Of a DNA stretch of 64,000 nucleotides, positions 13,521-63,649 are shown piece by piece (position 1 is the stretch's first letter; each line of letters opens with the position of its first letter). Under the pieces are notes generated by a model. It was given only the letters and a program-made list of their open reading frames with translations, was not told where the DNA came from and searched no databases. The position numbers and the translations under genes were made by a program. Source of the DNA: Epiperipatus broadwayi (taxonomy: Eukaryota > Animalia > Onychophora); contig JAQFVV010000004.1 in assembly GCA_028023455.1 (NCBI GenBank), forward strand, positions 4,898,001 through 4,962,000. The letters are read 5' to 3'.

Positions 13521-15411
13521 CAGTTTTAAAAATTGCAACAAAGATAACTGGTAGAAAAAAGCAGCAATTGACTAATAAAATTTCTACTGAGACTAGAGAA
13601 TTTATGAAGAAAAGAAGTAATATGAAAATATATAAAAATGATACATTAAAAAGGATTGAATATCTCAAATTTTGTAAAATGGTGTGGAAAAGAGTTGAAA
13701 ATGATATAAGAAAGTATAGCTGTGAACTAGCAAGGAAAGCTGTAGAAGAGAATAAAAGTCTCAAGAGCTGTAATACAACATTTTGGTATTGATAGGAAAT
13801 TTATATCTGCAATAAAAAAATGGAATTATTATTAAAAAGAGAGATGACATCATGAAATGAGTAGAAGACTGTTATCAAGATTTATATAGTAATAAAAAAA
13901 AAGTATCTCCTATATCTGTTACATCTTCCAAATTGCCCAGAATTTTAAATGAAGTGAAACATGAAATTAAATGTATGAAGAAAGAAAAGGTTCCAGGTAA
14001 TGATGGAATTATAATTGATATATTAAAAGAAGCAGGTAAAGAAACAGAAATTTTTTTAACAAAGTTATATACCAAATGTCTAAATGATAAAGATGTATCA
14101 AATGATTGGAAGAATGTAGTATTAATATTAATATTTAAAAAAGGTGATAAAGAATATATTAGAAAATACAGATCTATCAGCTTTTTATCAGTTTTATACA
14201 AAATGTTTACCAAGATAATTACAACTCATCTACAGAGAACATTGGATTCCCATCAACCAAGAGAACAAACTGGATTTAAAAGTGGTTTTAGTACAGTAGA
14301 TTATATCCAGGTATTGAAAGAAGTTTTTAGAAAGGACAAATGAATATGAGTTGCCATTATGCTTAGGATTTGTAGATTATGAAAAGGCATTTGATTCTAT
14401 AAACATTTCTTCAGTTATTAAAGCATTGGATCATCAAGATATAGATCCAGGATATTGTCATATTTTAAAGAATATTTATAAAAATTCAACAGCAACAATT
14501 AGATTACATAATGATACTAGGAAAGTCAACATTGAGAAGGGTATAAGACAGGGTGACTCCATATCTCCAAAACGGATTAAAATGGGAAGCTAAAGGAGTG
14601 AAAGTAAATGGAGATTATTTAAGTCATTTAGATTTTTGCAGATGATGTTGTTTTTGAAAATAATGCTTTAGAGCTGAGGAAATGTTGCAGGAGTTATCAG
14701 ATGAAAGTAGGAAATTAGGACTAAAGATAAATGTTAAAAAGACTAAAGTGAAGTTTAATGGATTGTCTCAAAATATGAAAATAAAGATTGATTATGATGA
14801 GTTAGAAGAAATTAACAGTTACAAATATCTTTGTCAGATTATTAATACAGATGGAAACATAATGGATGAAATTAATCATAGAATTAAAGTTGGTTGGAGT
14901 GCTTTTGGTAGAAATAACTTGATACTAAAAGGAAATATACCTATGTGTTTGAAAAGAAAGTTTTTTAATAAATGTGTTTTGCCAGTTCTTACTTATGGAT
15001 CTGAGACTTGGACACTTAATAGAAGAGCAATACAGAGACTTCAGACCACTCAAAGAAGTATGGAGAGATGCATGTTGGGAGTAACAAGAAGAGATCAAAA
15101 ATGCAATATATGGGTAAGAGAACAAACAGGTATTACTGACCTCATTGAAAAAATTAAAAGACTGAAATGGAGTTGGGTTAGACATATTACTAGAAGAGAT
15201 GATAATAGATGGACAATTGAAATCTTAAACTGGATTCCAAGAGATTGTAAAGACCCAGAAAGAGAGCACATGTGAGATGGATGGATGAAATAAGAAAGTG
15301 TGCAGTGGTGATGTGGAGAAGAGAAGCTAAAGATCAGAGAAGGTGGATTGAACTTGGAGATATCTTCATCCACAGTGGATTTACAAATAGTTGTTGTTGA
15401 TGATGATGATG
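13521..15411 (+). mobile_element. RTE-clade LINE, 5'-truncated, decayed
   Basis: RT motifs KVPGNDG, YRSISFLS, QPREQTGFKSGFST, FVDYEKAFDS, GIRQGDSISP, FADD (~14636-14648), PVLTYGSETW; 3' tail ccacagtggatttacaaatag(ttg)n(gat)n. Confidence 0.95.
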
Positions 15412-16439: not shown

Positions 16440-16791
16440 TAAATCTTTAAACATCATGTGATCACTATTTCCCATGCTTGCTCATAACAGTTGTTAAAAT
16501 AGGCAAAACTCTTTCCATACAGTAGTGCCACTCAAAGCAAAACAGAGTAATCAATGGATGCCAGAAGGCTTATGCATAAAATCCCTATCTAGTGCCTACT
16601 TATCCAATAACCCCAAACTAGTTTCTGGCTTGTGGTCTTCTCACTGATGAAGGCCACAAGCCAGAAACTAGTTTGGTGATATTGGATGAGTAGGCAGTAG
16701 ATAGGGATTTTATGCATAAGCCTTCTGGCATCCATTGATTACTCTGTCTTGATTTGAATGGCACTACTATATGGAGAGAGTTTTGCCTATT
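16440..16791. mobile_element. Palindromic PLE-type insertion: ~150-bp inverted arms (16494-16640 / 16649-16795), 54-nt one-sided tail, 14-bp TSD
   Basis: Near-perfect arms around an ~8-nt loop; TSD ttaattgattatat at 16426-16439 and 16792-16805; hammerhead core begins at the apex. Confidence 0.85.
16641..16678 (+). ncRNA. Minimal type-I hammerhead ribozyme-like motif
   Basis: CTGATGA A GGC-cacaa-GCC A GAAA CTAG TT tggtg; palindromic ACTAGT stem III as in dimer-forming PLE hammerheads; stem I 5' strand shortened by the fold-back. Confidence 0.6.
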
Positions 16792-18913
16792 TTAATTGAT
16801 TATATAAGGTAATTTCAATTGGGCATGATCAAGATGCTGATAATCCAAAAATACAAAGATGAAATTTTTCACCTTTATGTTGTTGCTACTGTTTATTCTT
16901 AAACCTGAAGCCATTTTTATCAGAAAATTAATATTCACAAATTGCCACCATCTCATGACATAATGAAGCTCTAGACGATTTTTGGCCATCTTACTCCCTG
17001 ACTTTCTCTTCCAGTAATTGTGTATAAGACATTTTGATACTGCTTGAAAAAGTCCTCTACCCACAAAAAACATATAATGCTGCAAAAGTATTAAACCAAT
17101 TAAATTATGATTAATAGCATCAAAAGTTTTTAGTACCATATGTCATATTCCATGTTCACTTGCATTGAACATTAAATAAATTTTTATTTGTACTAATTAC
17201 CACAGTATGATTTTTACCTCATCTACCTAGCTTATTTACCGCTTTAAAAATCAAATGTATTATTCACTTATTGTTAATGTGCTAATTTTACCTTATTAGC
17301 ATCACTCTTTATGAGATAATTTCTGCCAGTAGTATTTATAACACATTAAACTATCAGTTATATTTTGTCAAAAACTATTTAGCAATCACTTTTAAACTTT
17401 CTAAGAAAAGTCCCAGTAAAGTTGTTCAGATTTTTTTTAAGTTATTATTTTGCACTGAATAAGCATAAATAATATTTCATCATAAAATTAAAGTGAATGA
17501 CTGCATAATTTACTTTTCTTGACTGGAATTTGTTTAGCCTTGACGATGATAAATTTTTGATATCCATCTTGGAAAAAATGTCACAGATATGTTTATATAT
17601 ATAGATAATGTTTATTTTACAAATGTATATATTTACATTTAAAAAACTGTAATGGGAAATGTATATATTATTTATTTTCTTGTCAAAGTCAAACCTATTA
17701 AGATTTTGTAGAACTAATACAATAACAAAATGATATTGGATAAATTAATATGATCACAGACTGCAGTGGAAAAACATCATTTAGAAAAATTGTTTATGGA
17801 TGAAGAGGTGAGCTAAGAATGACCTCAATTGACTTGCAGGCATAGCTTGTACAAATATTGCAACGCTTTATTTTGTATTTTGCTATCTGTCTGCTTGAAA
17901 GTCAATCAAACTGAATTCAATTTCAGTTTCATTTCTCAAGAGAAAGCGAAAAGAGAGGGGATTGAAAAGTTTTTCCAAGCTTCAGGCCAGCCTAGTTCTA
18001 TTAGCTTTGGTGTACAGAGGAGGCTTTAGGGACCAATTATCTTCAGTCAGAAATCTGCCAATGATGAAGGGGGAGTCCAAAGGCATTGGTCAGTTATACA
18101 ACTGTTAATTTACAACAAAATTAATTACAGTCAAGAAGGTTGGACAAACTTGTCCATTGGCTTTGAACCATTAATTATCACTTGTCCATCTTGTCCTCTT
18201 AAAGCCCTGTCATTAACTTTTCAATTTGTTGCAGATACTAAGATGAACTCTAAAAGTTACTTTTTCTTCACTTTTACTCTAAAATTATTTCAGTATATAA
18301 ATCTCACATAAAATATCAGCAAATTAAAAAAATGATTTTCTTGATTAAAACAATAAAAAGAAATTTAATATGACTCAATTCAGTTAGGTCATATAAAATT
18401 TTGCAACGGTCATTGGCTGATGGCATTATAATAATCAATCATAATGTGACATTCTGCAAGATAAGCCATTATCGTTTCTTTTCCATCTTTCTGATGGAGT
18501 AAATGCCAGTTTCAAATGTCTAATGTATAATTAATAGCTTCATATTTGAGTTATCACTAAAATATAATTCCAGAAAGTGAAATAATGCATCAAAAATATC
18601 AGAATAAAGACATAATCATTTCATTTCTGATTGTATTGAAATATTTTTTTTTCTATGTGAACTAAATTTTCTTTAAAGAAAACTGATTGATCTCGTATAA
18701 ACAGAATTAAAATAAAGCTTAGATCAATCTAGAGATGAATAATAAATATTTAAAACAATTTAGAATTTCAAACTGATTTTTTTTATTTAAAAAAAATACA
18801 TTTGTGTGTGTTGATGGATATTTTAAATATGTATATAGCGCACACACTTTTCTACATAATCAACTTGCTTCAGTTTAGGCCTTTATTTCTTGCTAGTAAA
18901 AATATTAAATGAC

Positions 18914-25363: not shown

Positions 25364-26717
25364 GATTAATTTTAATTTAATAAAATAAACATTGAAAAGG
25401 TAAAAAGAAAGGTGTATTTTTCCCCCAAAAATATGGTTGTAGATATTAAAAAAATATATTATAATGGGTTTTAATATGCATTTTTATTGAACTTAAGTCA
25501 CTTTAGTTAGGCAAAATCATAACTCTCTATGAAGAATAATGATTTAGTTGAAAAACATATTAGGGACAATTAATATTCAAAGTATCTGACTATATTTTTT
25601 AAAATGTAAATGTTTTAACTTTAATTTCTAGAAATCTAAGATTATGCAGAAGAAAAAATGAATGGTTGATAGGATGAGTGTCATGCAAATAAGTAAAGAA
25701 TTATAAATATTTCTAAAATGTTTAATTTCAATGGAATTTGAGGAGGGACCGTACTGCTGCCATCAGAAGGCGCTGCGACACCATCAACAACCAGCCTGAA
25801 ACATGCAAGTAATAAATTTATTTACGAAAGTGGCTCAAAATTGACAAATAAAAAAAAATGCTATGAAATTCAAATAATAAAAAAAGTGATGAAAGTGGCT
25901 CAAAATTGACAAATAAAAAAGAAAACAACAAAATGCTATGAAATTCAAATAAAAAAAAATAAAAAACCATGAAAATACGAGAAAGAGCTCCCCCCCCCTA
26001 TAATCAAAAATTCTTCACTTAAATCAAAAAATAAAAATGCCTGAGGATATATATATCCAAGAAATACATGGAAAGTACAAATTATAAAAAAGAAAATAGT
26101 ATCAAATCCTATAATAATTCAAATTAAAAAAATAAATAAGTCCATGATTAATACAAAAACAAACATGGCGGACAAAAAGTGGAAAATCCAAAATCATCTA
26201 ATTATTTACCTTTCGACATTTCCAAATATGAATGGGCAAATTAAGTAGCTGTCAATATTTGAAAATGATCAGATTTAAAAACAAAGGTTATATAAACTAA
26301 AAAGAATATTACTGGTTTGAAATTATGGCATCTCATCAAACATAACCCCCCCCCATGAAGAATTTCTATCCAAAAATAACTAAAATGCACAAATTAAATC
26401 AAAAAAATACTTTTAAAATACAAATAAATAAAAAATTTGATCAAAAATAATTAAAAGCAATTGTTATATAAACTAAAAAGAATATTACATGAGAGAATCC
26501 ATTTCTCAAATTGCATCAAGAATACGATCAAAAATAATTAAAATGGAAATACAGAATTTGGTGTATATTTCTAAGAGATAAACTCTCTCCCCCTTCCGCA
26601 TGAAGAATTACTGAGTAACTTTTCACAAATATATATTTAATATTTAAAAATAAAAAGACTATTTGCAAATAATAAGTCACACACTTAAATACAGAGTAAT
26701 AAATAGTAAGTAATTAA

Positions 26718-28480: not shown

Positions 28481-31400
28481 ACATCAATTACAATACATTG
28501 AAGCAAAAAAAAAAATATATTCTAATATAGTTTTCATCATTACAAATGCAGAAACCTTCATATCATACACTGTACAATAGTCAAGAATAATGTCTATAGA
28601 GAGTGTTGCTGACTCATCACTAATAATGTTCAATATACTAAAGATGTTGGGGTAAGGTGCACTTCAACATCTTAGTGTTTGAACAGTTTACAGGCCATAA
28701 GATCTATGAGCAGCCTTGTAAACAGCATATTTATGTGCTTTAGTGTGGAAACAGTGCCCTCCAATGGTGTGGATCAATAGATGCTGTATTACCAAAATAT
28801 TATATTTATTGGCAGAAACGTTACAAGATTTTATTTTAACAAGAATTTAAATAAATAAGAATATTAAAATAGAGTTTTAAAAATATATTTGTAGAAATTT
28901 TATCAACTTTTTGTTCGAAGTTCATTTCACCACCATTTACACAATGATGAGTTGATCGATGTCCTTGTTTATAATTCTTCTTTAATTAAAATTATAAAAT
29001 TTACCTTTCTATTCTTAAATTTCTTAAGTTAGCACTTTTATCAAAGGTGATTGATCTCCATGTGAATAATAGCAGATTAAAAAAATACTTTAACAGAAGA
29101 CATAGACAAAACACTAGCAAAATTATTTAAAGAAGTTGCTGCTTGAAATATAGCATACATAATATCACAATGCAGTTTCAAATAACAAAAAATTATTCAG
29201 CATTTTGACAAAGAAAAAATATTTTCTTTAAAATTTACTTTAATACCATATTCTGTGCCCATTGGTAATTATATATAAAATGCATATTTCACTATGTTTT
29301 ACTTAAACAAAGTTGCAAATTGAAATGTGACATAATAGCTCTTTCTTACATTAAAAAATATAGGTGCAAACAATATCCTTCCACAAAAATATAACACCAC
29401 CAATGCAATTCAAAATATGAAATGATTTTTCTTTAATTAGAATTATCAAATAATAAATTATTCTTCAGAATTTTGAAAAGAGAAATGATTTTCTTTATAA
29501 TATACTTTTAAAATATATTTGTTTAATGTAAGAAAGAACTATTACATCACATTTCAATTCATATTTCATTTCATTTTATTTAAACAAAGTTGCAAATTGA
29601 AATGTGATGTAATAGTTCTTTCTTACATTAAACAAATATATTTTAAAAGTATATTTTAAAGAAAATCATTTCTCTTTTCAAAATTCTGAAGAATAATTTA
29701 TTATTTGATAATTCTAATTAAAGAAAAATCATTTCGTATTTTGAATTGCATTGGTGGTGTTATATTTTTGTGGAAGGATATTGTTTACACCTATATTTTT
29801 TAATGTAAGAAAGAGCTATTATGTCACATTTCAATTTGCAACTTTGTTTAAGTAAAACATAATGAAATATGCATTTTATATATAATTACCAGTGGGCACA
29901 GAATATGGTATTAAAGTAAATTTTAAAGAAAATATTTTTTCTTTGTCAAAATGCTGAATAATTTTTTGTTATTTGAAACTGCATTGGGATATTATGTATG
30001 CTATATTTCAAGCAGCAACTTCTTTAAATAATTTTGCTAGTGTTTTGTCTATGTCTTCTGTTAAAGTATTTTTTTAATCTGCTATTATTCACACGGAGAT
30101 CAATCACCTTTGATAAAAGTGCTAACTTAAGAAATTTAAGAATAGAAAGGTAAATTTTATAATTTTAATTAAAGAAGAATTGTAAACAAAGACATCGATC
30201 AACTCATCATTGTGTAAATGGCGGTCAAACTTTGAACAAAAAGTTGGTAAAATTTCTACAAATATATTTTTAAAACTCTATTTTAATATTCTTATTTGTT
30301 TAAATTCTTGTTAAAATAAAATCTTGTAATGTTCTTGCCAATAAATATAACATTTTTTCCTGTAATCAATGATTATTTTAAACTCTATATAATTATTAAT
30401 TAATAAATAATGAATAACTTGCTATAATTATATTTAATTACTTACTATTTATTACTCTGTATTTAAGTGTGGTGACTTATTATTTGCAAATAGCCTTTTT
30501 ATTTTTAAATATTAAATGTATATTTTTGAAAAGTTACTCAGTAATTCTTTATGCGGGAGGGGGAGAGAGTTTATCTCTTAGTAATACACCAAATTCTGTA
30601 TTTGCATTTTAATTACTTTTGATCATATTCTTGGTGCTATTTGAGAAATAGATTCTTTCATGTAATATTCATTGCTTTTAATTATTTTTAATCAAATTTT
30701 TTTTATTTGTATTTTAGAAGTATTTTTTTGATTTAATTTGTGCATTTCAGTTATTTTTGGATAAAAATTCTTTATGGGGGGGGGTATGTTTGATGAGATG
30801 CCATAATTTCAAACCAGTAATATTCTTTTTAGTTTATATAACCTTTGCTTTTAAATCTGATTGTTTGCAAATATTGACAGCTACTTAATTTGCCCATTCA
30901 TATTTGGAAATGTTGAAAGGTAAATAATTAGATGATTTGGGATTTTCTGCTTTTTGTCCACCATGTTTGTTTTTGTATTAATCACGGACTTATTTATTTT
31001 TTTAATTTGAATTATTATAGGATTTGATACTATTTTCTTTTTTTATAATTTGTACTTTCCATGTATTTCTTGGATATATATATCCTCAGGCATTTTTATT
31101 TTTCGATTTAAGTGAAGAATTTTTGATTATAGGGGGGTAGCTCTTTCTTGTATTTTCATGTTTTTTTTATTTTTTTTTATTTGAATTTCATAGCATTTTG
31201 CTGTTTTCTTTTTATTTGTCAATTTTGAGCCACTTTCATCACTTTTTTTTTTGCATTTGAATTTCATAGCATTTTGAAGTTGTTGTTTTTTTATTTGTCA
31301 ATTTTGAGCCACTTTTGTAAATAAATTTATCACTTGCATGTTTCAGGCCAGTTGTTTATGGTGTCACAGTGCCATCTGATGGTGGCAGTACGGTCCCTCC

Positions 31401-33084
31401 TCAACTACCATTTCAACTAAATGATTGAAATAATTTATCATATAATTACAAATAAAATGTTATCACCATGAGTAACAGTAGAGATTTGATTGCAGTATGA
31501 ATTAATTGTGTTATAAAGCTGCATGGTTACTCTAATAGTTTGTTGTGTGTGTATGTGTACTTACTAGATAATATATGTGGACCTTAAGTATTCTTGTTTA
31601 AAAACTAAATAAAAAGATATCTATAGAGTTAATCATATTAAAAATTTAATAAATGAAAAAGTACTATGTAAAAATGTCAACAATAAAATAATAACTCATA
31701 TAATGTAAGGGAAGAGAGAAAAATTCATTTTAGTGCACACAAATGAATTTTATTTGTGTAGTTTAAGAATATGTATACTATTTTGTGACCCTTTTATATT
31801 TGCTATTAGATGATGGTTTAAAGAAATAATGTGCCTTTTTAAATAGAAAATTTAATGGCAAATCTAAATATATTATTAAAAATTATAAGGCAGTAAAATT
31901 AAAAAAGAGAAGAATTTTCAAAAGTTAGTCATGATTTTTATTCTCATCATTAATCATAAATTTTAAAAAAAAACTTATTTTTTAGCATTTATAAAATAAT
32001 TTAAGAAATGAAAATATTAAAAAATGGATTTTGAAAAAAATATATTTTAAATCAACTCATTAAATCTGGATAAGGATGTTTTTCGATGAACATCTGCTAA
32101 CTTGATTGGATGCTATCAATTAAAAAACATGTTGTGAGGTATAAATAGGTCTGGCAAGAAAAATGACTATAATTTAAGTCTTGGTTCAGGAAGAAAGCAG
32201 TGCAGATTGATTCTGTGAATATCAGAATAACCCCTGGTTAAAACAATTTTCCACAGAATAGTTTTGGATAGCTGTATCTTGCTGAGTGTTCTAAAGTATT
32301 TTTCAATACTCCATCCTCCATAACAAATATGATGACATTAGCTAACTAAAGATAATAACACAACTGGCTGAAAAAATTGAACCACACTAATCAAAATACC
32401 TGAACTATACAATTGGATCCCGACAAATGCTGAAATTTGCTAAAATATGACAGTACTTGGTTTAAAGAAGAAAACTGTGCCATAAGGAAAGAAGTGAACT
32501 TTGTCATAATATCTCTCATATATTTGCCAACACCAATGCCCTAAGAGGATAATAACAAGAAAGACGGGATTGATAGAGACAATCAATAAAGATGTGCACA
32601 TATATGGTAAACATATGATATCTGCAGAAAAGCATGGTTTAAAACATTAAAAACTTAAGATATTTGATAATATCTTATCTTCATATTAATCCATGAGGCT
32701 TTAAGTTTACAATAAGTATTTTTCCCCCATTATTTTGTATTGGATTTATCTTTATTTGGTGGCTCAGTAGCAAAAATATAAGATATAATTTCATATTATA
32801 TTTAATTGGCAGCTTGTTTTTTTCATTACCAATTTACTTTGTTTTTGCTTTTTGAACTCATTTCAAACATATACACTCTATTAACCATGAGAAATCATGC
32901 AATCCACTGTGAAACAAGTAGGGATTATGATAGCAATTTAAATCGATAATATTGGTCATAAGTTGTCCAGAAGTAAACTTTTTTATTTAGAAAATTTTGC
33001 ACCTTAACATTCATTTTAAATTGAATCTAAAAAAAGAAATTAAAAATACTTGTAGAATAATTATATTTAATATAATTAGAAAGA

Positions 33085-38029: not shown

Positions 38030-40796
38030 AAATCATGACCCATTTTCCCAGGAAGCTATAAAATCATTAGCCAAAGTGATGGTTGAAGATAAGGGTGCTA
38101 AAAATCCCCTGGCTGCAAACCCAGGCTGCCATTTGATAATGACCTTTTATTTAGGTACTTACAACTGCAGATCACCTTCAAGTGAAAGAACATTGCAAGA
38201 ATTGAAAGGATTGTCTCATATTAAATGGAACATTATTGAACTTTATGAAGTTAGAAGAAAAGGTAAAGAGACAATTGATTTAAAAAATGAATGTGTACTC
38301 TACTAGAAAGCACAAATATTGGAAGTACAAAATGCATAGAATTTGTTATAAATAAAAAGTGGAAAAACAATTTTGTGGACATTGATGGTATATCAGACAG
38401 AGTGGCAAGTTTAGTTATTCAACTTAATAGCAGATACCAAATGCAGATAATTCAGATTTATGCCCAACATGTTTTCATATGGCAAGAAATAGTAGAGGAT
38501 TTTAAACAGGCTTTTCTTCAGACCAAACAACATTTTAAAATTGTTATAGGAGATTTTAATGTTAGAATTGGTAAACACTTGAAAGATGAAAGTGTTGTAG
38601 GTAAATTTGGTTAGGGTAATAGAAATGAGAGAGGTCATAGACTTGTGGAGTTTGCAGAAAAAGAAAAACTTTATTTTTTTTAGAAAAATATTAAAAGGAA
38701 ATGAACATGGAAGCATCCAAATGAAGGTACAGCAGAATTGGATTATATTTTGACTAACAGAAACTATATATTTCAAGATTGTAATGTTCTTAATAAATTC
38801 AACACAGAAAATAATCATTGATTAGTAAGATGTAAGATATGTGTTAATGTAAAATTAGAGAGGCAAAAATTATTAAGAAAAACAATACATACAGTTAATA
38901 TTCATAGTCTTCAGCATCATTCTAATGAATTTAAATTAGAATTTGCAAATTGGTTTTAAATATTAGTAGAATGGCAACAGCAAATGACTAATAACATTTT
39001 TACTGAGACTTGAGAATTTATGAAGAAAAGATGAATATAAAAATATATAAAAAGGATGCTTTAAGAATGATTGAATATCTCAAATTTTGTAAAATGATGT
39101 GAAAAAGAGTTGATAATGATATAAGAAAATATAATTGTGAACTAGCAAGGAAAGCTCTAGAGGAGGATATTGATCATCTTATCTCCCGTTGCTTAAAACT
39201 CAGAGACATGGAGATGATATTGAGATCTAGTATTAGGTCAGGATGCTCTCAGACACTGGACATCAGTAGGGCACTGAGAATTGGAGAATTTTCTATAATC
39301 CGAATGGCAATCATGATTCTCTTTGCAAAGTGGCTGACCAGGTGTCACAGTGTTTTTTGAGACAACTTGGCAAACCCATGGCAAGTCTTTAAAAAACACT
39401 TTTGCAGTCTGAAAACCAGAGACTATCTTATAACATCCCACAGACGGTATGCAGACATGTGGGAACAGATTACTCTGGATGAGCCGACAATCAAATCTCT
39501 TAAACTGACATCTAAATTATAAAATGATTTGTCAACTGAAACTAGAAGAGACAAGAAAGAAGAAGGTATGAAAATGGAAAAAGAGATGATAGGAAGAATG
39601 AGTAAAAGGGGAAAGAACAAAGATAATACAAAACAGATAAAACCTACCACCAAATGAAAAATGGCTGCTTGATTTGATGTGGTGTAACCAAAGACCAAGA
39701 TGTAACATAAAACTACACAAGATAAAAGAGAGATGTAAATTCAAGTTGAATTCAATCAATGTAAACAAAGACTAAAACAAATGTAAATGAATAGAGCTAT
39801 AATCTAATGTAATCTGTAGAATCTGTATTCCTATAAATATTTCCTTAATAAAAAAAAAGAGAGAGAGAGAGAGAATAAAAGTCTCAAAAGTGTAAAAAAC
39901 AACATTTTGGTATTCGTAGGAAACTTATATCTTCAATAAATAAAAAAAAAGATGGAACTATTACTAAAAAGAGAGATGACATCATAAAATGGGTAGAAGA
40001 GTTCTATCAAGAATTATATAATAATAAAAACAAGTGCCTCCAATTATATCACTCAATTGCCCAGGATTTTAAATGAAGAAGTGAGACACAATTTAATTTA
40101 GGAAGAAAGAAAAAGCTCCAGATAATGATGAAATTATAATTGATATCTTAAAAGAGGCAGGTAAAGAAATGGAAAAATTTTTGGCAAGATTATATACCAA
40201 ATGTTTAAATGATAAAAATATACCAGATGATTGGAAGAATGTAATATTAATATTTTAAAAAGGTGATAAAGAAGATATTAGTAGATACAGAACTATCAGC
40301 AATTTATCAGTTATATAAAAAACTTTTACCAAGATACTTACATCTTGTCTACAGAAAACCTTGGATTTCCACCAACCAAAAGAACAAGATGGATTTAAAA
40401 GTGGGTTTAGTACAATGTAGCATATCAAAGAATTGAGAGAAGTTATAGAAAGGATCAATGAATATGAGTTGCCATAATCCTTTGGATTTGTAGATTACGA
40501 AAAGGCACTTGATTCTATAAGCATTTCTTCAGTGATTAAAGCATTAGATCATCAAGGTATAGACCCAGGATATTGTCATATTCTGAAGAATATTTATAAA
40601 AATGCAACAGCAAACAATTAGATTACATAATGATACTAGAAAGGTTAACATTGAGAAGAGTCTAAGACAGGGTGACTCCATATTTCCAAAACTTTTTCCA
40701 GCAGTTCTGCAAGAAATATTTTGTGGATTAAAATAGGAAGCTAACAAAATAAAAGTAAATGGATATTATTTCAGTTATTTAGATTTTGCAGATTCC
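38030..40796 (+). mobile_element. RTE LINE copy 2 (APE endonuclease + RT), decayed, interrupted at ~39163-39870
   Basis: YLGTYNCRS...LYEVRRKG, HFKIVIGDFNVRIG; RT region closely similar to 13780-14640; ends near the LDFAD motif. Confidence 0.9.
39163..39858 (+). mobile_element. 5'-truncated L1/Tx1-type LINE 3' end (ORF2 C-terminus, 3' UTR, poly(A)) inserted in RTE
   Basis: EDIDHLISRC...KWLTRCHSVF...stop 39520-39522; AATAAA plus A-run at 39847-39858 then (GA)n; RTE sequence resumes at gagaataaaagtctc as in copy 1. Confidence 0.7.
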
Positions 40797-41123: not shown

Positions 41124-41557
41124 GTTACCATCATGGCAAACAACTGAATTAAGGGTTTTTTTATTGCCAGAAGATTGTAAAGTTACCAGACAAGGCAGCA
41201 ATTGATGATAAAAGATTGAAAATGCTAAGCATCTTCTGATTAAAGACCCAGGGTGCCATTTTAATGAAGATTTTTAATTAGATACTTACAACTTTAGATC
41301 ACTTTCAAGTGAAGAAGACTGCATGAATTGGAAGATAACTATGCAATATTAGATGGGACATTATGAAACTTTGTAAAATTAAAAGACAAAATAAAGAGGC
41401 CTGAAGGTTTGTAATGATAGTATATTATAAGATGTGATATGTTGGACTATTTCCATCATTTATGAGTGAATGTTGAATGTATAGAAAATTTTAAACTTTA
41501 GTTAAACTTTCCAAATACAAACTTGTTAGTAATAGCACACATATAGTCAATATAATT

Positions 41558-41603
41558 ACATAACGTTTTGAGTAGTATTATTCTCCACTCTTCTTCAGGT
41601 GTT
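41558..41603 (-). ncRNA. Type-I hammerhead-like motif (G12->A)
   Basis: Reverse complement acac CTGAAGA A GAGT...ACTC AAAA CGTT atgt; palindromic ACGT stem III. Confidence 0.6.
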
Positions 41604-42262
41604 GCTGGCCTATATGCACAGTGTAATATATGCAGTTTAAATTAAACATACATACGAAAGCATCTTTATTCTAAAATATTATTTTATTGCTAAATCTTTA
41701 AATATTGCTACTAATATTCTAATCATAGACATTAGCTTGAAATGCAATCGATTGTAACAAACTAATTAAACAGATAACGAAGGAATTTAATTAGCAAAAC
41801 CTAATCTAATTAAATCCCACCTTAATTTATAAGTTACTCCAGAAAACAAAAGAAAGAAAACATATAAAAGGGAGGCCATTTTTGAAAAGAACAACAGAGT
41901 GAGTACAGAGCGTTTTAAGTGAATTAGAGCAGAGCATTAGTTGCAAAGAATAGCATGGGAATTGCGTATTACCCTCTTGGAGAAAGAAGAGAAGTTAGAC
42001 GTAGAAACTAGATGTTCAGAATTATCATGCGAGTATTCATTATCGTATGTTCATAGTGTATTTTTCTAACACAGCTCGGCGGGAATCAGAACTTTGTATA
42101 AACTGTAAATCAGTTAGTATCGATCTGTTTGGAGAATTAAACCAACTAGTTCGCAAATTAACTTTTGTGTGCAGTAATTGAAGAGTCAATATACTGCAAT
42201 CTGGCACAGTCAAATTAGTCGAACCTAAAAACCACAGTGAATAACCAGCTATTAATTAGAAA

Positions 42263-42919
42263 ATGTCAGTTTTCGGACAAAACTCTATTGGAGAGTTCGA
42301 CGTGGAAAACGCGGCCGATTGGCCACTATACCTGTCACAAATCGAAAATTTCTTCATTTTAAATGGCATTGAAGACAACAAGCAGAAAGTAGCTGCCCTT
42401 TTATGTTTCTCGGGGAAAAAAATTATTGAAATCGCCAATAAATTATACCAAAATCCCGTAGATGAGAATGTACCATTTAAGGAATTATCCCAACGGCTAA
42501 ACGAATTTTTTAGTCCTCGCCCATCCCGACATATAGCATGCCTATAGTTAAGGAATAGAAAACAACTAAATAGTGAAACAATCAAACAGTATAATTTAGC
42601 TCTCAAGGAGTTAGCAAAAGATTGTGTATACGGTGATTTCATAGAAGAAATATTATTAGATCAACTATTATGGGGAATGTCTGATGACAGGCTCAGACAA
42701 CAGCTGTTAACAGAGGCAGACCTAACCTTTGAAAGTGCTATAAAGAAAGGAATAATGTTTGAGCTAATTCTAGAACAGGCACAGGCCTTCAGATCAAAAG
42801 AGAAAAGTTACGAGCAAGTTTTCAAAACTGATAAAGCAGAAATATGTTTGTTTCAACACAGGAACTCCAGAGAAATTACGGAATTAAATGCTACTGCTGC
42901 AGGAAAACAGGCCACATAG
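42263..42919 (+). pseudogene. gag: Gypsy gag capsid region (premature stop 42545-42547, frameshift near 42835-42890)
   Basis: IGEFD...DWPLYLSQIENFFILNGIED...VAALL...RKQLNSETIKQY...LKELAKDC.YG...LLDQLLWG.SD.RLRQQLL.E.DLT matches the Mag/K02A2.6-like gag pattern. Confidence 0.85.
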
Positions 42920-43650
42920 CTAAAGACTGCAAATGGAAACAAGAAATGTGTTTCAATTGCCGAACTAAGGGTCACCTTGCACGTGCATGCAGACAATCAC
43001 CAGAAAGGGATAGTCGACAAAGGAAATATAGTCCAGACACAAATGGTAGAGCATATAGTATTAAATATATATCTACCAAAGGGGAAAGAGATAGGACCAT
43101 TTCGCAAGCACAAACAGAGGTCATTAAATTACAAAATCAATTTGAAGATGATCGGAAAGACTCTGAACAGAAGCAGTGTAAAGAGCAACTCCAGATTCAC
43201 ATAAAGATGATAGATATGTTGGTCACAGAAAAAACAAAGCTGCAGTCATCCCTAGCACAAAGTCAGCAGGTTATAAAACAGAAATCAGATGAACTCGAAG
43301 AATTTCAAGTAAGACTGAAGGCTTCTAGACAACGAGTAATAGAACTTAAACAACAAAACTCAGAACTTAGTGAAAAATTGCAAAGTAAACTCACAATATC
43401 AGAATTATCCGAACAGGTAGAGAGTTGGCAGCTGTATGAAATGGAACCACAAGAAAAAATGGCCGAAAGTGAAAAGGAAGAAGACACTTCTGAAGATTTT
43501 TTAGAAGAGCGGCAATCTTTAACCAGTGAGCTGCCAGATACAAAAACTGTAGAGCAAGGAAAAAATCAGACTCTCTCCAAGCAGGAGAAAAAAGCACTCA
43601 GGGTGGCAAGGAAAAAGAATTTGCACAAATTTCAAGGTTACATCAGTTAA
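42844..43650 (+). CDS. 268-codon open frame: two Gag CCHC knuckles fused to a golgin A2 (GM130)-like coiled coil and a basic C-terminus
   Basis: CYCCRKTGHIAKDC and CFNCRTKGHLARAC, then QFEDDRKDSEQKQCKEQLQIHIKMIDMLVTEKTKLQSSLAQSQQVIKQKSDELEEFQVRLKASRQRVIEL, which resembles human GOLGA2 as recalled from memory ([72 protein letters not shown]); no search run. Confidence 0.8.
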   Translation: MFVSTQELQRNYGIKCYCCRKTGHIAKDCKWKQEMCFNCRTKGHLARACRQSPERDSRQRKYSPDTNGRAYSIKYISTKGERDRTISQAQTEVIKLQNQFEDDRKDSEQKQCKEQLQIHIKMIDMLVTEKTKLQSSLAQSQQVIKQKSDELEEFQVRLKASRQRVIELKQQNSELSEKLQSKLTISELSEQVESWQLYEMEPQEKMAESEKEEDTSEDFLEERQSLTSELPDTKTVEQGKNQTLSKQEKKALRVARKKNLHKFQGYIS

Positions 43651-44478
43651 TCGTAAAAATAAAGTTTTCTCCAGTTTGGAAAAAGAAAAAATAAAGCACC
43701 GAGGAGTCGCATCATGGGGTTTTCTGGACTAAGGGGAGGTATTGTAATATATGCAGTTTAAATTAAACGTACATACGAAAGCATCTTTATTCTAAAATAT
43801 TATTTTATTGTTAAATCTTTAAATTTTGCTACTAATATTCTAATCATGGACGTTAGCTTGAAACGCAATCGATTGTAACAAACTAATTAAACAGATAATG
43901 AAGGAATTTAATTAGCAAAACCCAATCTAATTAAATCCCACCTTAATTTATAAGTTACTCCAGAAAACAAAAAAAATAAAACATATAAAAGGGAGGCCAT
44001 TTTTGAAAAGAACAACAGAGTGAGTACAGAGCATTTTAAGTGAATTAGAGCAGATCATTAGTTGCAAAGAACAGCATGGGAATTGCGTATTACCCTCATG
44101 GAGAAAGAAGAGAAGTTAGATGTAGAAACTAGACGTTCAGAATTATCGTGCGAGTATTCGTTATCGTGTGTTCGTAGTATATTTTTCTAACACAGCTCAG
44201 CGGGAATCAGAACTTTGTACACACTGTAAATCAGTTAGTATCGATCTGTTTGGAGAATTAAACCAACTAGTTCGCAAATTAACTTTTGTGTGCAGTAATT
44301 GAAGAGTCAATATACTGCACACAGTGACAATATTCACTTAGAAGTTGAACTTGCACCTTTAGATTCTTGACAGAATAGCTCAGTTGGTAGAGTGTTTGCC
44401 TTAAATTCAATATTCAAGAATCTAAAGGTGAGAGTTCAACTTCTAAGTGAATATTGTCACTGTGCGTATAGGCCAGAA

Positions 44479-44523
44479 ACACCTGAAGAAGAGTTGAGAA
44501 TACTACTACTCAAAATGTTGTGT
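44479..44523 (+). ncRNA. Type-I hammerhead-like motif, degenerate
   Basis: acac CTGAAGA A GAGT...ACTC AAAA TGTT gtgt; stem I ACAC/GTGT; two changes compatible with CpG decay. Confidence 0.55.
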
Positions 44524-45130
44524 AATTACTAACTCATATTGTCTATATGTGTGCTATTACTAACAAGTTGTTTGTATTTGGAAAGTTTAAATAAAGTTTA
44601 AAATTTTCTGTACATTCAACATTCACTCATAAATGATGGAAATAGTCCAACATATCACATCTTATAATATACCATCATTACAAACCTTCAGACAAATAAA
44701 GAGGCAATTGATTTAAAAAGTGGACATGTACTTTATTACAAAGACACAAATATTAGAAGCACAAGTGGAATGTGATTCATTATAAATAAAAGTGAAAAAA
44801 TAAACTTATGAAGATTGACAATGTTTCAGATGGAGTGGCAGGTTTAGTTATTCACAATATTGGAAAATCCAAAATGCAGATTATTCAAGTGTATTCTCAA
44901 CCATTTCTATTTGTAATGAATAAATAGATTTTTATGTGGATGTGCAAAATGTTTGGTCAGACCAAACAACATTTTAAAATTGTCATGGAAGATTGCAGTG
45001 GTAGAACTGCTAAATGATTGAAAGATGAAAGTTGTGGGTAATTTGGTTGTGGTAAATAAAAATTACAGATTTATGGAGTTTGCAGGAAAAAAAAGTGTAT
45101 ATTATGATTTTTTTTTTTAATGCTAAATGG

Positions 45131-48100
45131 CAGGGCCGGCGGAAGCGGGCATGCAACGCATGCTAGGCATGCGGGCGCTGGCAGAAGGAGGCGCCATCAC
45201 TGAGAGATTAGCATCTGAAAAAGAAGGCGCCATCCCTGAGAAATTAAAACTCTACTAACAAAAATACTCACATTTGAAGAATATTATTCTCAAATGTTTA
45301 TTTACAAAAATTATTGAGAGTAGATTATTGAAAATCATATGAAGTCATATTATATCTTATTAAATGACACACACAAGCAGGCCTGCACACAAGCTCTGCT
45401 TAATATTAAAAATATAAAACAATCAAATCTATTATTTATCATGAACAATAAACTAAACATAAAGTTTATTATATTACAAATTTCATATTGTAATGTTTAT
45501 ATATATATAGTACTGCTTATAGTAAACTATAAGTAACTTTCTGCTAGCAAATATATAAATAAACACACACTAAAAGTATTATAAATTAGAACTTATGTAT
45601 GTATATGCGTATATATATATATTAGATCATGTACATAATTTTGAAATCGTAAGAAACGATTATAATATTGCAAAATAAAACATTTTCTAATTTTTTATTT
45701 AAATAATAATTTGATATAAATATTCGAACGTGTATGTAATATATATTATAGGTATAATTCCAGTAAACTTAATATAATTTTCAGTTTACTTTTTATTTTA
45801 TATATTTTAATCGTTGTCAAAAGTCTATTTTTTCTGCATACTAATTAGGTTTGCAAATTAATTACATACGTTTGCTTATGATGTTTATCGCAAATTTTAA
45901 AATCTTAGTAAGAACTTGTAAACAATAATTATAATCCCAGGAAATTTTCTATTGAAATCGCAAATCAGCCTGGCAGGCCACCTGTGTTAATTAGAAAAAT
46001 ATATGATAACAAAAGAAAATCTTGCCAATGGTAAAACTAAAATGTTCAATCAAGCGTAAAAAACTGGACACTTGAGTTATTTTAAAACCTGACCATTTTT
46101 AATGTCAATGGCTGAATATTTCCAATTTATTAGCTGCCTTTTTTAGGTAAACAAGTTAAACAACTTCTTCCCCTCTGCGTATAAAGTTTTGTATTTTGGC
46201 GCAAGAAGTAATTTGTGTTGGACATCTAAATTAGTGATATATAATCTTAAGTATTAAGATACATGATGTAAATATATAAATTAGAGTCCGTATTTATTTA
46301 TTTATTACATTTGAAAATTATTTTAAAGTGGCGTTCATGAGTAAAAGTAATATGGAATCAAAAACTAAGAAAAAACTATCCGGTGCACAAAATCGTAAAC
46401 GCCAAGCTGAAAAAATAGCAAACATTAAAAAACAAAGTGGATCACTTAATAAATATCTTAAAATATCAACTGCTTCTGAAATAGCTTATACTCAACAAGA
46501 ACCAGAACCCTGCACATCATCTAGTTCACAGGGAACTGTTGAAAATATTGAACAAGATTTTAGTAAGAAACAGTTAAGTGACAACAAAGTCATTGTGCCA
46601 ATATCATATCAAATGTGTACAAATTTAGAAGATCCAGCTGAATGGAATAAAATCGATGACAAACTACGTGTTATTTTAGTAGAAATGGGGCCTGTTCAAA
46701 AGAAAGATATTATATATCCGAACGATGTACATGGCGTAAATTTTCTGATGTATATTATAATAGAAAAATGGAAAACGGAGAAGTAGTTTTTCGAAAATGG
46801 CTTATTTATTCCGAAATTTTGAACTCTGTGTTTTGCTTTTGTTGCAAAGTTTTTGGATCTACTGAATCTAGCCTCATAGAAGGATACAATAATTGGAGAA
46901 ATTTAAGTACAACTTTACACAGACATGAAACTAGTATGGCTCACTGAAAAGTTTATTGAATTGAATGAACTTGAGAAAAGATTAAAAAACAAAATTACTA
47001 TTGATTGTCAATCTCAAAATTTATATGAAATGGAAAAGAAACATTGGAGGAGTGTGTTGGAAGGCGATTGAAATTATCAAATTCCTTGGTAGTCAAAATT
47101 TAGCATTTGGGATCATCTGATAAATTATACAAAAAATAACGAAATTTTTAAAATTAATTGAATTATTTGAAGTTTGATCCCGTTATGGAAAATCATGTTG
47201 AGAGGGCCCTAGATCAAAACAATAGAGTACATTATTTGAGCAAAGATAGCCAAAATGAATTATTGGAAATTTTAAGTACAGCAATTAGGGAAACAATTTT
47301 ATTATCGATAAAGAAATCCAAATATTATTCTATTATTTTAGATTGTACACCAGATGCAAGTAAAACTGAACAAATGACATAATTATTCGCTGCTTTTTGT
47401 AATAATGGAACGTTAAAATTAGAGAAAACTTTTTAGGTTTCATAGATATAACAGATTCCACTGGACGAGGTTTATGTACAACAATAATTAAACAACTGGA
47501 AAAATGGAAGATTCCCATTGAAGACATGCATGGTCAAGGGTATGATAATGGGGCCAACATGAAAGGCAAAAAGGCTGGACTTCAAAATTTGATTTTAACC
47601 AAAAACCCTCATGCATTTTACATACCATGTGCTGCTCATTCTTTAAACTTAATCATAAACGATGCGCAAAGTCAATGTAGATACAATTGGTTTTTTTGTA
47701 ATTGTTCAAAAAATATACAATTTTTTTCATCATCTTATAAACGGTGGTCAATCCTTTTAAAATTTATTAAAACTTTAACTCTAAAACAACCATCAGAAGC
47801 ACGATGGGAAAGCAAATTGATGCAATCCGCCTCTACGGTATCAGTTGGGTGAAATTTATGATGCACTCTATGAAATAATGAACAACGAATCTTTTAATAG
47901 AGAAATTCAACATGAAGCTCAATCACCCTGCACTAACCTTAAGGATTACAAATTTATTTGTTCTTTAATAATTTGGCATGATATATTAAATAGAATAAAT
48001 CCTGTCAGTAAAATGCTCCAAAATGTAAATATGAATGCTTCACTTGCTTTAGAATCGATCGCAAATCTAAATAAATTTTTACGAGAATATCGATCAGATT

Positions 48101-49681
48101 CAAATTTCAAAAACATTCTCAAAATTGCAGATGAACTTAGTGAAGAGGTTGATGGAGAGAAAGAATTTAAAACTGCCAAAGAAGTTCGACAACAGAAAAA
48201 ACTCGTCAATTTGATTACGAGCATCAGGACGAAACACCTCAAATACCTGAAGAAAAATTTAAAATAAACATGTTTTTTACACTTTTAGATGTAGCGATTA
48301 ATTCTTTAACAGAACGCTTTGAACTCCTCGAACATGTTATAATAATTTCAATTTTCTATATAAAATATCAGAAATTAATAAGAGCGAGTTACAAGCAAAA
48401 TGCAAAGATTTAGAAAATATTTTGAAATTTGATAACAGTAAAGATATTAATGCTACAGATTTATTCGACGAATTATGTGCTTTTCGAGATATTTTTCAAA
48501 AGGATTTTTTAAATTCTCAAAACCCTTTCGAAACACTTAATTTTATAGTTTCTAATAATTTATCTATGCCAAACTTATCAATAGCTTTAAGAATATTATT
48601 AACATTACCTGTTAGTGTTGCAAGGGTGAACGCTCTTTTTCTAAGTTAAAATTAATTAAAACTTACTTGAGAACAACTATGTCACAAAACGGCTTGTTAA
48701 TTTGGCATTAATTGCTATTGAAAATGATATTTGTGCAGAACTGGAAATAAATACAATCATATCAAGGTTTATTAATATGAAGTCAAGGAGTATAAAATTA
48801 TTATAATTATAACATGTTTTGTAATGCATTTACTTTTTTTAACTGTATTTTCTTTTTTTTTAATATTAAAAATTATTTATTTACATTGCCTTGTTTGTTT
48901 CCCTTAGAAAGATTTTGTACACTAATATTTATAACATGTAGGTGGTATACATTAAAGTGACCAGATTTTAACATTGGTAAAACGGGACACCATTGACCGG
49001 GGGGGGAAGAGCTGATTAAAAATTTGGTTTATATGGAGCGTTTATATAGATATAGCGTACATTAATAATAATAAATTAAATATGTATGTTTGTAATCTTT
49101 ATCTTTTTAAAATTATTTCATTTATAAATTGTAAATTTATTATTAAATTTGCTAATATTTGCATAAATTTAGAGGTTAGAAAAATTAGCAAAAATTTTAA
49201 AAATAATGGGTTTGTTAAAAACAGACAGAGACGCAAATAATAAATATGAAATTTTTAAAAAAAAATATTTGAGATTAAAATATGTAAATGTTTTTCGAAA
49301 ATTATTTTAAACATTTAAATATTTTAATCTCAAACATTTTTTTTTAATTTATTATATATATATATATGAATCACTCTGTCTATTTTTAACAAACACATTA
49401 TTTTTAAAATTTCTGCAAATTTTTCTAACATCTAAATTTGCCGTGTTAAATTATATATTATTTCATACAAACCGTTTGTATGAAATAATATATAATTTAA
49501 CAATCAATTTTATGCTATTTTTGATATCAAAAATAGCATTACATCATGCATTCTTTCTAAAAATCATGACTTTTTTAAAACGCCATGGGACACGGTCGGG
49601 TCACCTTAGTAAACATACATATTGACAGGGGCGCCAAAATCAAATTTGCATGCGGGCGCCTAGTACCCAGTGCCGGCCCTG
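45131..49681 (+). mobile_element. hAT transposon (ZMYM1-like transposase), full length, transposase decayed
   Basis: TIRs cagggccggc / gccggccctg; 8-bp TSD ctaaatgg at 45123-45130 and 49682-49689. Confidence 0.95.
46338..48790 (+). pseudogene. hAT transposase (TTF-type zinc finger, catalytic core, C-terminal dimerisation domain), frameshifted
   Basis: KWLIYSEILNSVFCFCCKVF; YYSIILDCTPDAS; GQGYDNGANMKG; IPCAAHSLNL; RWES; ALRILLTLPVSVA...RSFSKLKLIKTYLRTTMSQ. Confidence 0.9.
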
Positions 49682-60984: not shown

Positions 60985-63649
60985 CTTTAAAATTCTTTTT
61001 GGTTAAACATAAAATCTGGACAGAGATTGCATAGCATTATGATTACTACACTTATCTTCAAACCCATAACATGCCATTAAAACTGAAGTGAAATTTGAAT
61101 AATTTCTCAAGTCCTAAGCAAGTATTAAAATTTTTTTCAGATTCTTAGTCAGTATGAATAGTTATCCAATTAGTGCTTGGTAAATTAGAATAAAATGAAA
61201 AAAGTGACACCAATATTGGACTAGTTTGACAAAAAATATATTCTTTCAGATATTCTATAAAATGTCTTTTCTTTATAAAAGCTACTTAAAAATTGGTTGT
61301 AAATTCAATATGATTTTTCCAAGCATTTTTAAAGCAAATTTTAGCTATGATATAACCAGGTTAACAACCAATCAAAAATTGGCAATACAAACTGAAATTA
61401 AACCATCTAATAATGGTATATGTCAAAATCTAACACCTTTAAATGAAAAATGTAATCTTTTTTACCTTATTAACCTAGATTATATAAAGATTGTAAATCA
61501 CATGTAAATATTTCACATCTATGAAAACTAGAAATGTCACAACTTCTAGTTTCATGCATATCAAGTTTCTATGTTTAACTACAACTCATATAATCTAGGC
61601 TAATAAGCTAAAAGCAATTTTATTTTTGCTTTAAAGATGGTCAGACAAATACTATCACTAGGTGGCATGATTTCAATTTGCAGTGTTAGTTTTTAAATTG
61701 ATATTTTGCTTTATTAAATCATATCTAAAATTTATCTAGAAAAGTTATCTGCAATTTATTTAACCTTCTATTTAATTTACTAGCACAGTAACTTGTATGT
61801 AATTTTAATGAAAAGAGAATCCAATAAAATATTGCTGAGTTATTAAAACAACATTACAGCACATGTGTATAAGGTGTAATTTTCTTCTGATTAAAATTAT
61901 AATTTTATTTTAAAGTTCATGAAAATATTCTAATTATTATATATAAGTTTTTACATAGAGGCTTATTATTGTGAAAATATTTAAAATATTTGTTCCATTC
62001 CAATTTTCACATATGTAAGTACTTATGTCCGACTTACAACTGATATGTAATTTTACGGTTGTAAACCAAAGTAATTACACTTTTGGTTTAAAAGTGGAGC
62101 AACCAATTTCTATTACTAGAGGGCATCAAAATCACCTTTTAGTTGATTGTTTGTCTGGTTACATTAAACATGAAATTTATCTAGAAAAATACATGGAAAA
62201 AAATCTTGTTAAATATACAATAATTACATTTTAAAGTCTGTGAAAATCTTTTATTTAAATATATATATATATACGCACAATTCAAGTATATTTGTAATGA
62301 AAAATTATTTATTTAATTTCTATCACTTTTAAATTATTAAAAAGTATATCACTTTATATATTAATATATTTTCTGTTTAGTAGCAACAAAAGGACCAGGA
62401 AGTAATGATTCAATAACATAATTTCCATATCCTTAAAGTACCATAGACTAATGAAAATTTAAATTAATATTAAACCAGAATTTCATAATTTTTTTCCACC
62501 TGAATGCAAAGTTTTTTGCCCCCCCCTAAATTATTTTGAAAATCTATCACGCAAAAAATATGGAAACATATAAAATAAAAATTAAAAAATTAGACATTTA
62601 CAATTCCAATGCTTAAAAATTTATTGTTTTTGCTTTCATATATGAAATTTTTTTTACAATATTTTCCAAATATGGTTGAACATAAAATATTTTTATTAAT
62701 TTTAATTTAGAGAAATATCTCTTCCTTTAAATAATTGTTAACGGCTTTGCTAGATATGGCTATTGTTAAATTTAGAAACCATGTTTAAATGTGACAAAAG
62801 TCAAATAATCTCATAATTTCTAACTGTTAAAGTGAGAAAATTAAAATGTTATTTTATTTGATAACATGGGGAAAAACTTTATGCATAAAGTGTTACGCAG
62901 TCTGTGTTATTACTGCAGCAAGTGTTAATGCTGTCAGAAGGTTTATTAATGTTTAAACAATGAATTAGTTTATTCGTAATGAATATTGTCATCATAAGCA
63001 ATTTATTATACAGTGAACCCATTTGGACAAGGTAATAAGATAATATTAAATAGTAAAATAATTTTATTATTTTTATGGTCCTATAAATTTTCTGTCCTCT
63101 AAATTGGGCTGCCTGATTGCTTTGCACATTTTGCACCTATTATATTAAACAATTGTATTAACTATTAATTTTAATGACTATACACATTTGCTATGTGATT
63201 CATAATATGGTGCATTCACCTTCTATGCTCTATAACCTGAGTTTGAATCCAGACTGCTAAACTTGAAAGTAATTTCAGGTTATTTTCAATCTTACTATTT
63301 TTATGGGGATATCCCTTAATTAATTCTACCATCCAAATATTAATCAAAAAATACGTACCTAGCTATTTTTAGCAAAAGAGTAAAAAGCCATGACCAGTGG
63401 TGAGTGATACCTTCTCTTTCACTGGTTCCTCTTCCAGAGATCATGGTTATGATGGTATATATAAAGGCTGCTTTATCCTTATATTTATCACATGAAACAT
63501 TTATGTTTAATCTCATACAGCATCTTTATAATCAAAAAATTAAAATGTTAGCAATTAGCATATTTTTTACATTGTTTTCTTATGGTAATATTAATGCCAG
63601 CTTTAAAAAAAAAAGGATTAGTGATTAAAGTTAGTTTCCTTGTTTTCTT

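Follow-up and report, generated by a model that had tools for sequence, protein, structure and literature searches.

Results

Within the window, that is the whole stretch of 64,000 nucleotides of Epiperipatus broadwayi DNA analysed here, positions 41622-44319 are occupied by an LTR element of 2.7 kb, whose interior carries gag with two zinc knuckles and, in frame behind them and at the place of pol, a piece of the host golgin gene GOLGA2 (GM130) (Table 1). The structural features of an LTR retrotransposon are all present, namely TG...CA LTRs, a target duplication, a PBS-like motif, a polypurine tract and gag, and the two LTRs align with 553 matches and 24 mismatches, 19 of them transitions (K2P 0.043), in an alignment which has one gap and took in one extra flanking base. 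The PBS-like motif at 42202 may be of the tRNA-Ser type. No protease, reverse transcriptase, RNase H or integrase domain was found in the interior, and the copy is thus not an autonomous element. An earlier note, made from the sequence alone, had described both LTRs, the PBS, the polypurine tract, a 5-bp target duplication and an interior of about 1.54 kb, and our analysis recovered every one of them (95.8% LTR identity, CACAG, 1544 nt).

Table 1. Features of the LTR element and of the golgin piece that it carries (positions in the window)
Feature	Position	Strand	Remark
5' target-site duplication (CACAG)	41617..41621	.	identical 5 nt at 44320-44324
5' LTR, 577 nt, TGTA...TGCA	41622..42198	+	95.8% to 3' LTR, K2P 0.043
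PBS-like TGG motif, 3 nt past 5' LTR	42202..42211	+	motif and position only
gag (capsid part), broken in this copy	42263..42888	+	stop 42545-42547; frame change ~42812-42861
two CCHC zinc knuckles (42889-42930, 42949-42990)	42889..42990	+	PF00098 E 1.9e-7; PDB nucleocapsid matches
gag C-terminal linker, frame unchanged	42991..43124	+	run X8: zero depth over 42960-43106
GOLGA2/GM130 block A (P0001 98-170)	43125..43344	+	18-nt in-frame deletion at 43179; unbroken at L001 intron position
GOLGA2 block B, past in-frame deletion of ~42 codons	43345..43386	+	homologue offset; transcript continues at 43344
GOLGA2 block C, past in-frame deletion of ~17 codons	43387..43407	+	loose end before 43388 in X7 and X8; offset 17
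acidic tail, same open frame, stop 43648-43650	43408..43650	+	43402-43647 open 82 codons; homologue not found
polypurine tract, 3 nt before 3' LTR	43731..43739	+	motif and position
3' LTR, 577 nt	43743..44319	+	pair with 5' LTR
3' target-site duplication (CACAG)	44320..44324	.	matches 41617-41621

The gag frame starts with the ATG at 42263, meets a stop and then switches frame ahead of the knuckles, the interval of the break being derived from contig spans. From 42835 to 43647 a frame of 271 codons (P0001) is open, 268 of them counted from the ATG at 42844, and both CCHC knuckles lie within it; a stop and a frameshift in the upstream gag next to a fusion frame open for 268 codons had indeed been claimed before, and are confirmed. 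In all four listed contigs that span this copy's frame change gag and knuckles are held in one frame, so the break probably arose in this copy or its branch alone. The capsid part is weakly recognised (PF03732 at E 0.018, below the cut-off), Atlas leads point to Retrotrans_gag/Ty3 capsid clusters, and an AlphaFold model of gag made without an alignment was unusable (pLDDT 37). Full-length gag relatives or a helper element were found among none of the 1343 candidates of one search and none of the 449 of another.

The piece behind the knuckles is specifically related to GOLGA2. Residues 92-205 of P0001 match 417 of 544 candidates, and among the matches listed all 120 are either named GOLGA2 or possess PF15070 (E 3e-17 to 6e-7), which bears out the proposal of a GM130/GOLGA2-like segment placed in frame after gag and two CCHC knuckles with pol replaced. 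An unbiased HMMER search gave 122 matches, with PF15070 in 16 of the 26 scanned; five of the best seven have names, being GOLGA2-like proteins of falcon, scorpion, horseshoe crab and Lingula and a millipede hypothetical protein with PF15070. None of the 122 GOLGA2-matching representatives contains a CCHC knuckle, and a near-length search for a gag-golgin fusion in public proteomes returned one of 316 candidates, a plain GOLGA2 fragment, which is weak evidence of absence.

A generic coiled coil was considered as well, as the segment alone draws weak, unrelated coiled-coil Pfam families and the Atlas puts GOLGA2 14th among generic coiled coils. We reject it on two grounds: the Pfam model of GOLGA2 does not cover the piece, which is situated upstream of PF15070 in the four homologues whose positions were compared, and the sequence searches are specific to GOLGA2. 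Generic coiled coils as best matches, named beforehand as the outcome that would speak against the golgin reading, did not occur, the listed matches being of the GOLGA2 family throughout. About 130 aa of coiled coil had been announced, and of this the golgin origin stands for about 93 aa, from 43125 to about 43407, while for the remaining tail of about 80 aa downstream of the golgin piece no homologue was detected. This acidic tail is open for 82 codons, a length which 51 of 20000 shuffles reach, and it is therefore probably an old coding sequence, perhaps derived from the 3' end of pol in the parent. In runs X1, X6 and X7 the summed contig depth rises several-fold at 43401-43442, directly past the golgin piece, as if golgin-less relatives shared the tail, contig depth being a poor measure.

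The donor transcript could be followed across the junctions of the piece. Contigs of runs X7 and X8, which we guess to be RNA, were aligned to 42960-43560; on the gag side the depth of X8 is zero over 42960-43106, and its contigs on the golgin piece are 87-91% identical to it, differing at 7 of 64, 16 of 123 and 6 of 69 nt. The transcript departs from the element at 43125, on the upstream side, and at 43188, 43344 and 43388, and the contig beyond 43344 continues for 635 nt unlike the element, opening with L-E-R in frame as in 52 of 91 homologues. Each of these departures, as read by eye, is in the element's frame and GOLGA2-like. Since the transcript runs on in frame at the junctions, the 5' capture point at about 43125 and three in-frame internal deletions are fixed at the nucleotide level.

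Deletion offsets were taken from the 91 of 128 homologues with a good match to the core. Deletion 1 removed 18 nt, or 6 residues near residue 115, and a 6-residue gap is the commonest value (41 of 91). Deletion 2 comprises about 42 codons after residue 170; a 42-residue offset is seen in 54 of 91 homologues, and the block next to it beats 60 of 60 shuffles. For deletion 3, of about 17 codons, an offset of 17 was reached by 3 of 300 shuffles with one of six segments tried, which argues for it less strongly. Internal deletions had been expected from the resemblance of two blocks to later GM130 segments; according to our analysis, combining transcript contigs with homologue offsets, there are three. 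Of the two blocks, KQQNSELSEKL is such a segment (0 of 60 shuffles reach its score), and SEQV is no better than shuffles, 100 of 300 reaching its score, and was not retained as another GM130 block. In the transcript, the flanks of deletion 1 show, by eye, a near-repeat of about 9 nt. The DNA run X1, which has the same organism label as X8, lacks three alleles of the transcript (43214, 43230, 43275), for which filters or fragmentation may be responsible.

With regard to the route of capture, the GOLGA2 gene of another animal (L001, one of 175 candidate stretches) has a GT-AG intron in the codon aligned to residue 152 of P0001, and the element is unbroken there. An uninterrupted piece at the intron site of a homologous invertebrate gene points to capture from mRNA, and the earlier proposal that a host mRNA fragment was transduced is on this ground probable, the intron position being that of another animal's gene. 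The capture point and deletions 1 and 2 do not coincide with L001 exon ends, and exon skipping was for this reason rejected as the source of the two deletions.

Entry at the DNA level, through repair of a break or through ectopic recombination involving the GOLGA2 gene or a processed pseudogene, and followed by ordinary retrotransposition, would account for the same uninterrupted sequence as far as a processed pseudogene likewise has no introns. We give it hardly any credence, considering that the piece runs through the L001 intron position, that it lies in sense orientation, and that pol was replaced by it and not inserted into, as is reported for template switching in the account of LTR-mediated retroposition by Tan et al. 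2016 (PMC5131818).

The piece is not peculiar to this copy. The interior occurs, whole or in part, in eight of nine listed runs from three studies under two organism labels, runs X1-X4 perhaps stemming from the source sample, and all bins over 42200-43742 are covered in four of four runs. In X1, 883 contigs lie on 42960-43560, 1% of them continuing unlike the element, with up to 31 variant contigs per site of the golgin piece. Deletion 2 is bridged by divergent contigs (X6 record 12, X7 record 22), and so is deletion 3 (X1 record 2, X6 record 13); together with the target duplication that the present copy has of its own, these common junctions in X1, X6 and X7 indicate secondary retroposition. 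A bridge of the gag/golgin junction with 31 nt on each side was found among none of the 32 records listed in each of two contig alignments, and no loose end at 43125 is listed for X1. The piece recurs in dozens of variant contigs from two organism labels, and it therefore belongs to a family, as had been claimed; a one-off insertion is rejected in view of the interior coverage and of the divergent contigs across the deletions.

Sister variants have lost less of the gene: X6 and X7 each have one contig in which the 18 nt of deletion 1 are present, and 15 X1 contigs have extra GOLGA2-like sequence before 43382, from which we infer that the deletions came in steps. The piece differs from the transcript by 9-13% and the LTRs from each other by 4.3%, so that the family was likely moving long after the capture. 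One X7 contig of 570 nt (record 29, 42863-43131) follows gag and the linker to 43131 and then continues for 261 nt unlike the element; it may represent the parent with pol still in place, or else a sister carrying different cargo.

Variants among the copies were scored for 16 gag rows at 42394-42729, from the best-supported 40 of 632, and for all 40 rows of the golgin region, which are the best-supported 40 of 109. In gag 11 of 16 are synonymous (0.31 expected, p 0.002); in the golgin piece 5 of 17 (0.29 expected), in the knuckle linker 2 of 8 and in the tail 4 of 15, and gag differs from the golgin piece in synonymous share with a Fisher p of 0.038. The golgin variants hence look neutral and gag looks constrained, a hint from a partial and biased sample; it is not a proper dN/dS comparison, because best-supported rows only were used and the gag variants may derive from golgin-less relatives. 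Purifying selection on the captured protein, as would be looked for in a fusion of gag-onc type, is not seen in these listed variants.

At the same time the frame is kept at all five junctions, which are the capture, the three deletions and the tail. Of the micro-homology pairs that this sequence contains, a share of 0.33-0.44 keep the frame, which gives a chance of about 0.04-0.09 for the three deletions and about 0.015-0.04 once the tail junction is added as a fourth. With such low chances (about 0.02-0.09) the kept frame is a hint of selection for translatability, and a cargo that was purely a passenger would not quite be expected to show it. It would be in line with the idea that pol-less LTR parasites are selected for a single long reading frame that starts in gag and ends at the former stop of pol, the gap being filled in frame by a host coiled coil, in which case the GM130 piece would act on Gag as a frame-keeping spacer, or as a stalk for dimerisation, and so give the family an advantage over its helper; we regard this as rather unlikely.

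The same kept frame, zero stops in 271 codons and the gag and knuckles held in one frame by the four spanning contigs would also fit a Gag-GM130 fusion selected as such, with the coiled coil as a dimerisation or spacer module, for example for co-assembly with helper particles or for reaching the pericentrosomal Golgi. This is improbable in our judgement, since 12 of the 17 listed golgin variants are nonsynonymous, as are eight of the nine that stand at intermediate share in X1, and since the coiled coil has lost about 65 codons. Moreover, the piece lies upstream of PF15070 in the four homologues compared, and in fly GM130 residues 1-270, likewise upstream of PF15070, are not Golgi-enriched, those of 100-550 being so in the experiments described in PMC10272413. 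By this positional equivalence Golgi targeting by the captured piece is unlikely, and the suggestion that the coiled coil might act in Golgi targeting or in Gag assembly agrees neither with the fly result nor with variants that look neutral.

A role at the RNA level is the last alternative, in which piRNAs of the element would match the host GM130 message, or the piece would shield the element from silencing in the manner of Drosophila telomeric elements. We find it very improbable, for the match has shrunk by repeated deletion and the kept frame would be left unexplained. GM130 is not known as a silencing gene. The transcript identity of 87-91% is, on the other hand, near the median of about 90% given for such captures in the account of piwi, aub and nxf2 acquisition by Drosophila telomeric elements, for which an anti-silencing role is proposed (PMC13534243); eight of the nine captures in that account are piRNA-pathway genes, which counts against it here.

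Discussion

We think it quite probable that the locus holds a broken copy of a multi-copy, pol-less LTR family, which carries a thrice-shortened piece of GOLGA2/GM130 in frame behind gag, likely obtained by template switching to mRNA, likely copied by a helper, and likely a passenger and not a selected domain. We propose that, at about 43125, the reverse transcriptase would have left the element RNA for a co-packaged GOLGA2 mRNA and returned to the element RNA close to the 3' end, so that pol was replaced. The piece may then have been eroded stepwise by in-frame deletions during the spread of the family, as its sister variants suggest, and an autonomous Ty3/gypsy relative could have mobilised it in trans. 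An open frame, and not an amino-acid sequence, might have been weakly favoured, for instance if RNA translated to near its 3' end were more stable, which we offer tentatively.

Acutely transforming retroviruses provide a parallel, as their gag-onc fusions have host coding sequence in frame with gag in place of pol and need a helper. The element described here differs from them in that it has neither env nor a signalling domain, and in that its captured protein sequence shows no sign of being under selection. TR-GAG elements, described mostly from plants, have LTRs, PBS, polypurine tract and gag without pol and are not known to carry host cargo; our element shares their organisation and differs from them by its cargo.

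The process itself has already been described across animals. LTR-mediated retroposition is reported from flies, mosquito, fish, chicken and mammals, where internal ORFs are replaced, products can be in frame and a second round of copying occurs; maize Bs1 is cited there (Tan et al. 2016, PMC5131818). As here, the retrocopies in that description have a partial host coding piece for internal ORFs between the LTRs, in sense and in frame, and are recopied non-autonomously. The multi-site cases compared here are young, near-identical to the parent and occupy few sites (PMC5131818), unlike the present family, which is about 10% from its donor, has dozens of variants, is joined to gag in frame and bears three in-frame deletions.

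The analogy with maize Bs1, drawn in the earlier note, is also apt. Bs1 is, as summarised in the same source, an LTR element in which spliced host fragments stand for pol and switch points are common to copies and species; it took from three donor genes, has 1-5 copies and is argued to encode a functional hybrid (via PMC5131818). Our family differs by one identified donor gene, by many more variants and by the absence of a sign of amino-acid constraint.

As to the placement of the element, two CCHC arrays in the nucleocapsid are described for the Mag and Micropia/Mdg3 clades of Ty3/gypsy (PMC2577118). The element resembles these clades in the two arrays, which are not unique to them, in the 5-nt target duplication and in the TG...CA LTRs, as given in that source (PMC2577118); unlike them, it has no pol by which it could be placed, and no significant full-length relative of its gag was found among 1343 candidates. 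A paper on golgin or GM130 capture was not found in the open-access literature, and the supplementary tables of Tan et al. could hold closer cases.

The GM130-carrying family is a further case of a known process, notable for its amplification, its age and its mapped in-frame erosion. It is an invertebrate LTR family that does what transducing retroviruses do, with the cargo kept through a long amplification in two related organisms. As mapping is possible for the donor transcript, for the point of capture and for the three staged deletions alike, it may serve as a test case of whether cargo is kept for its protein sequence, for the frame alone or for neither. From the practical side, a large number of copies with about 90% identity to GOLGA2 can mislead gene annotation and the mapping of reads, and small RNAs against the host gene could arise from them.

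Surroundings of the element

The LTR element lies inside one arm of a hairpin element of about 590 nt (41401-41621 and 44325-44691), which has a 43-nt loop at 44371-44413 containing a motif that by eye resembles a tRNA A-box, flanking direct repeats of about 14 nt and a read depth far above that of the LTR element. It may be a tRNA-derived SINE that forms an inverted dimer, or else a foldback element; neither ARAGORN nor Rfam found a tRNA in it. The hairpin element in turn splits a repeat remnant (41223-41398 and 44697-45094) that matches 38096-38666 continuously at 71-75% identity, and as the remnant is continuous across the hairpin insertion the insertions are nested at three levels.

Further long palindromes are found in the window at 28794-30356, 16494-16795, 49165-49439 and 61336-61733, one of them 1.56 kb long at 96% and containing tandem repeats, and 25700-26717 is repeated in inverted orientation at 30434-31441. 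The fragmented frames at 46280-48267 resemble, by eye, a transposase of the hAT type, and those at 13861-15275 and 39870-40793 look by eye like fragmented remnants of an RTE-like reverse transcriptase.
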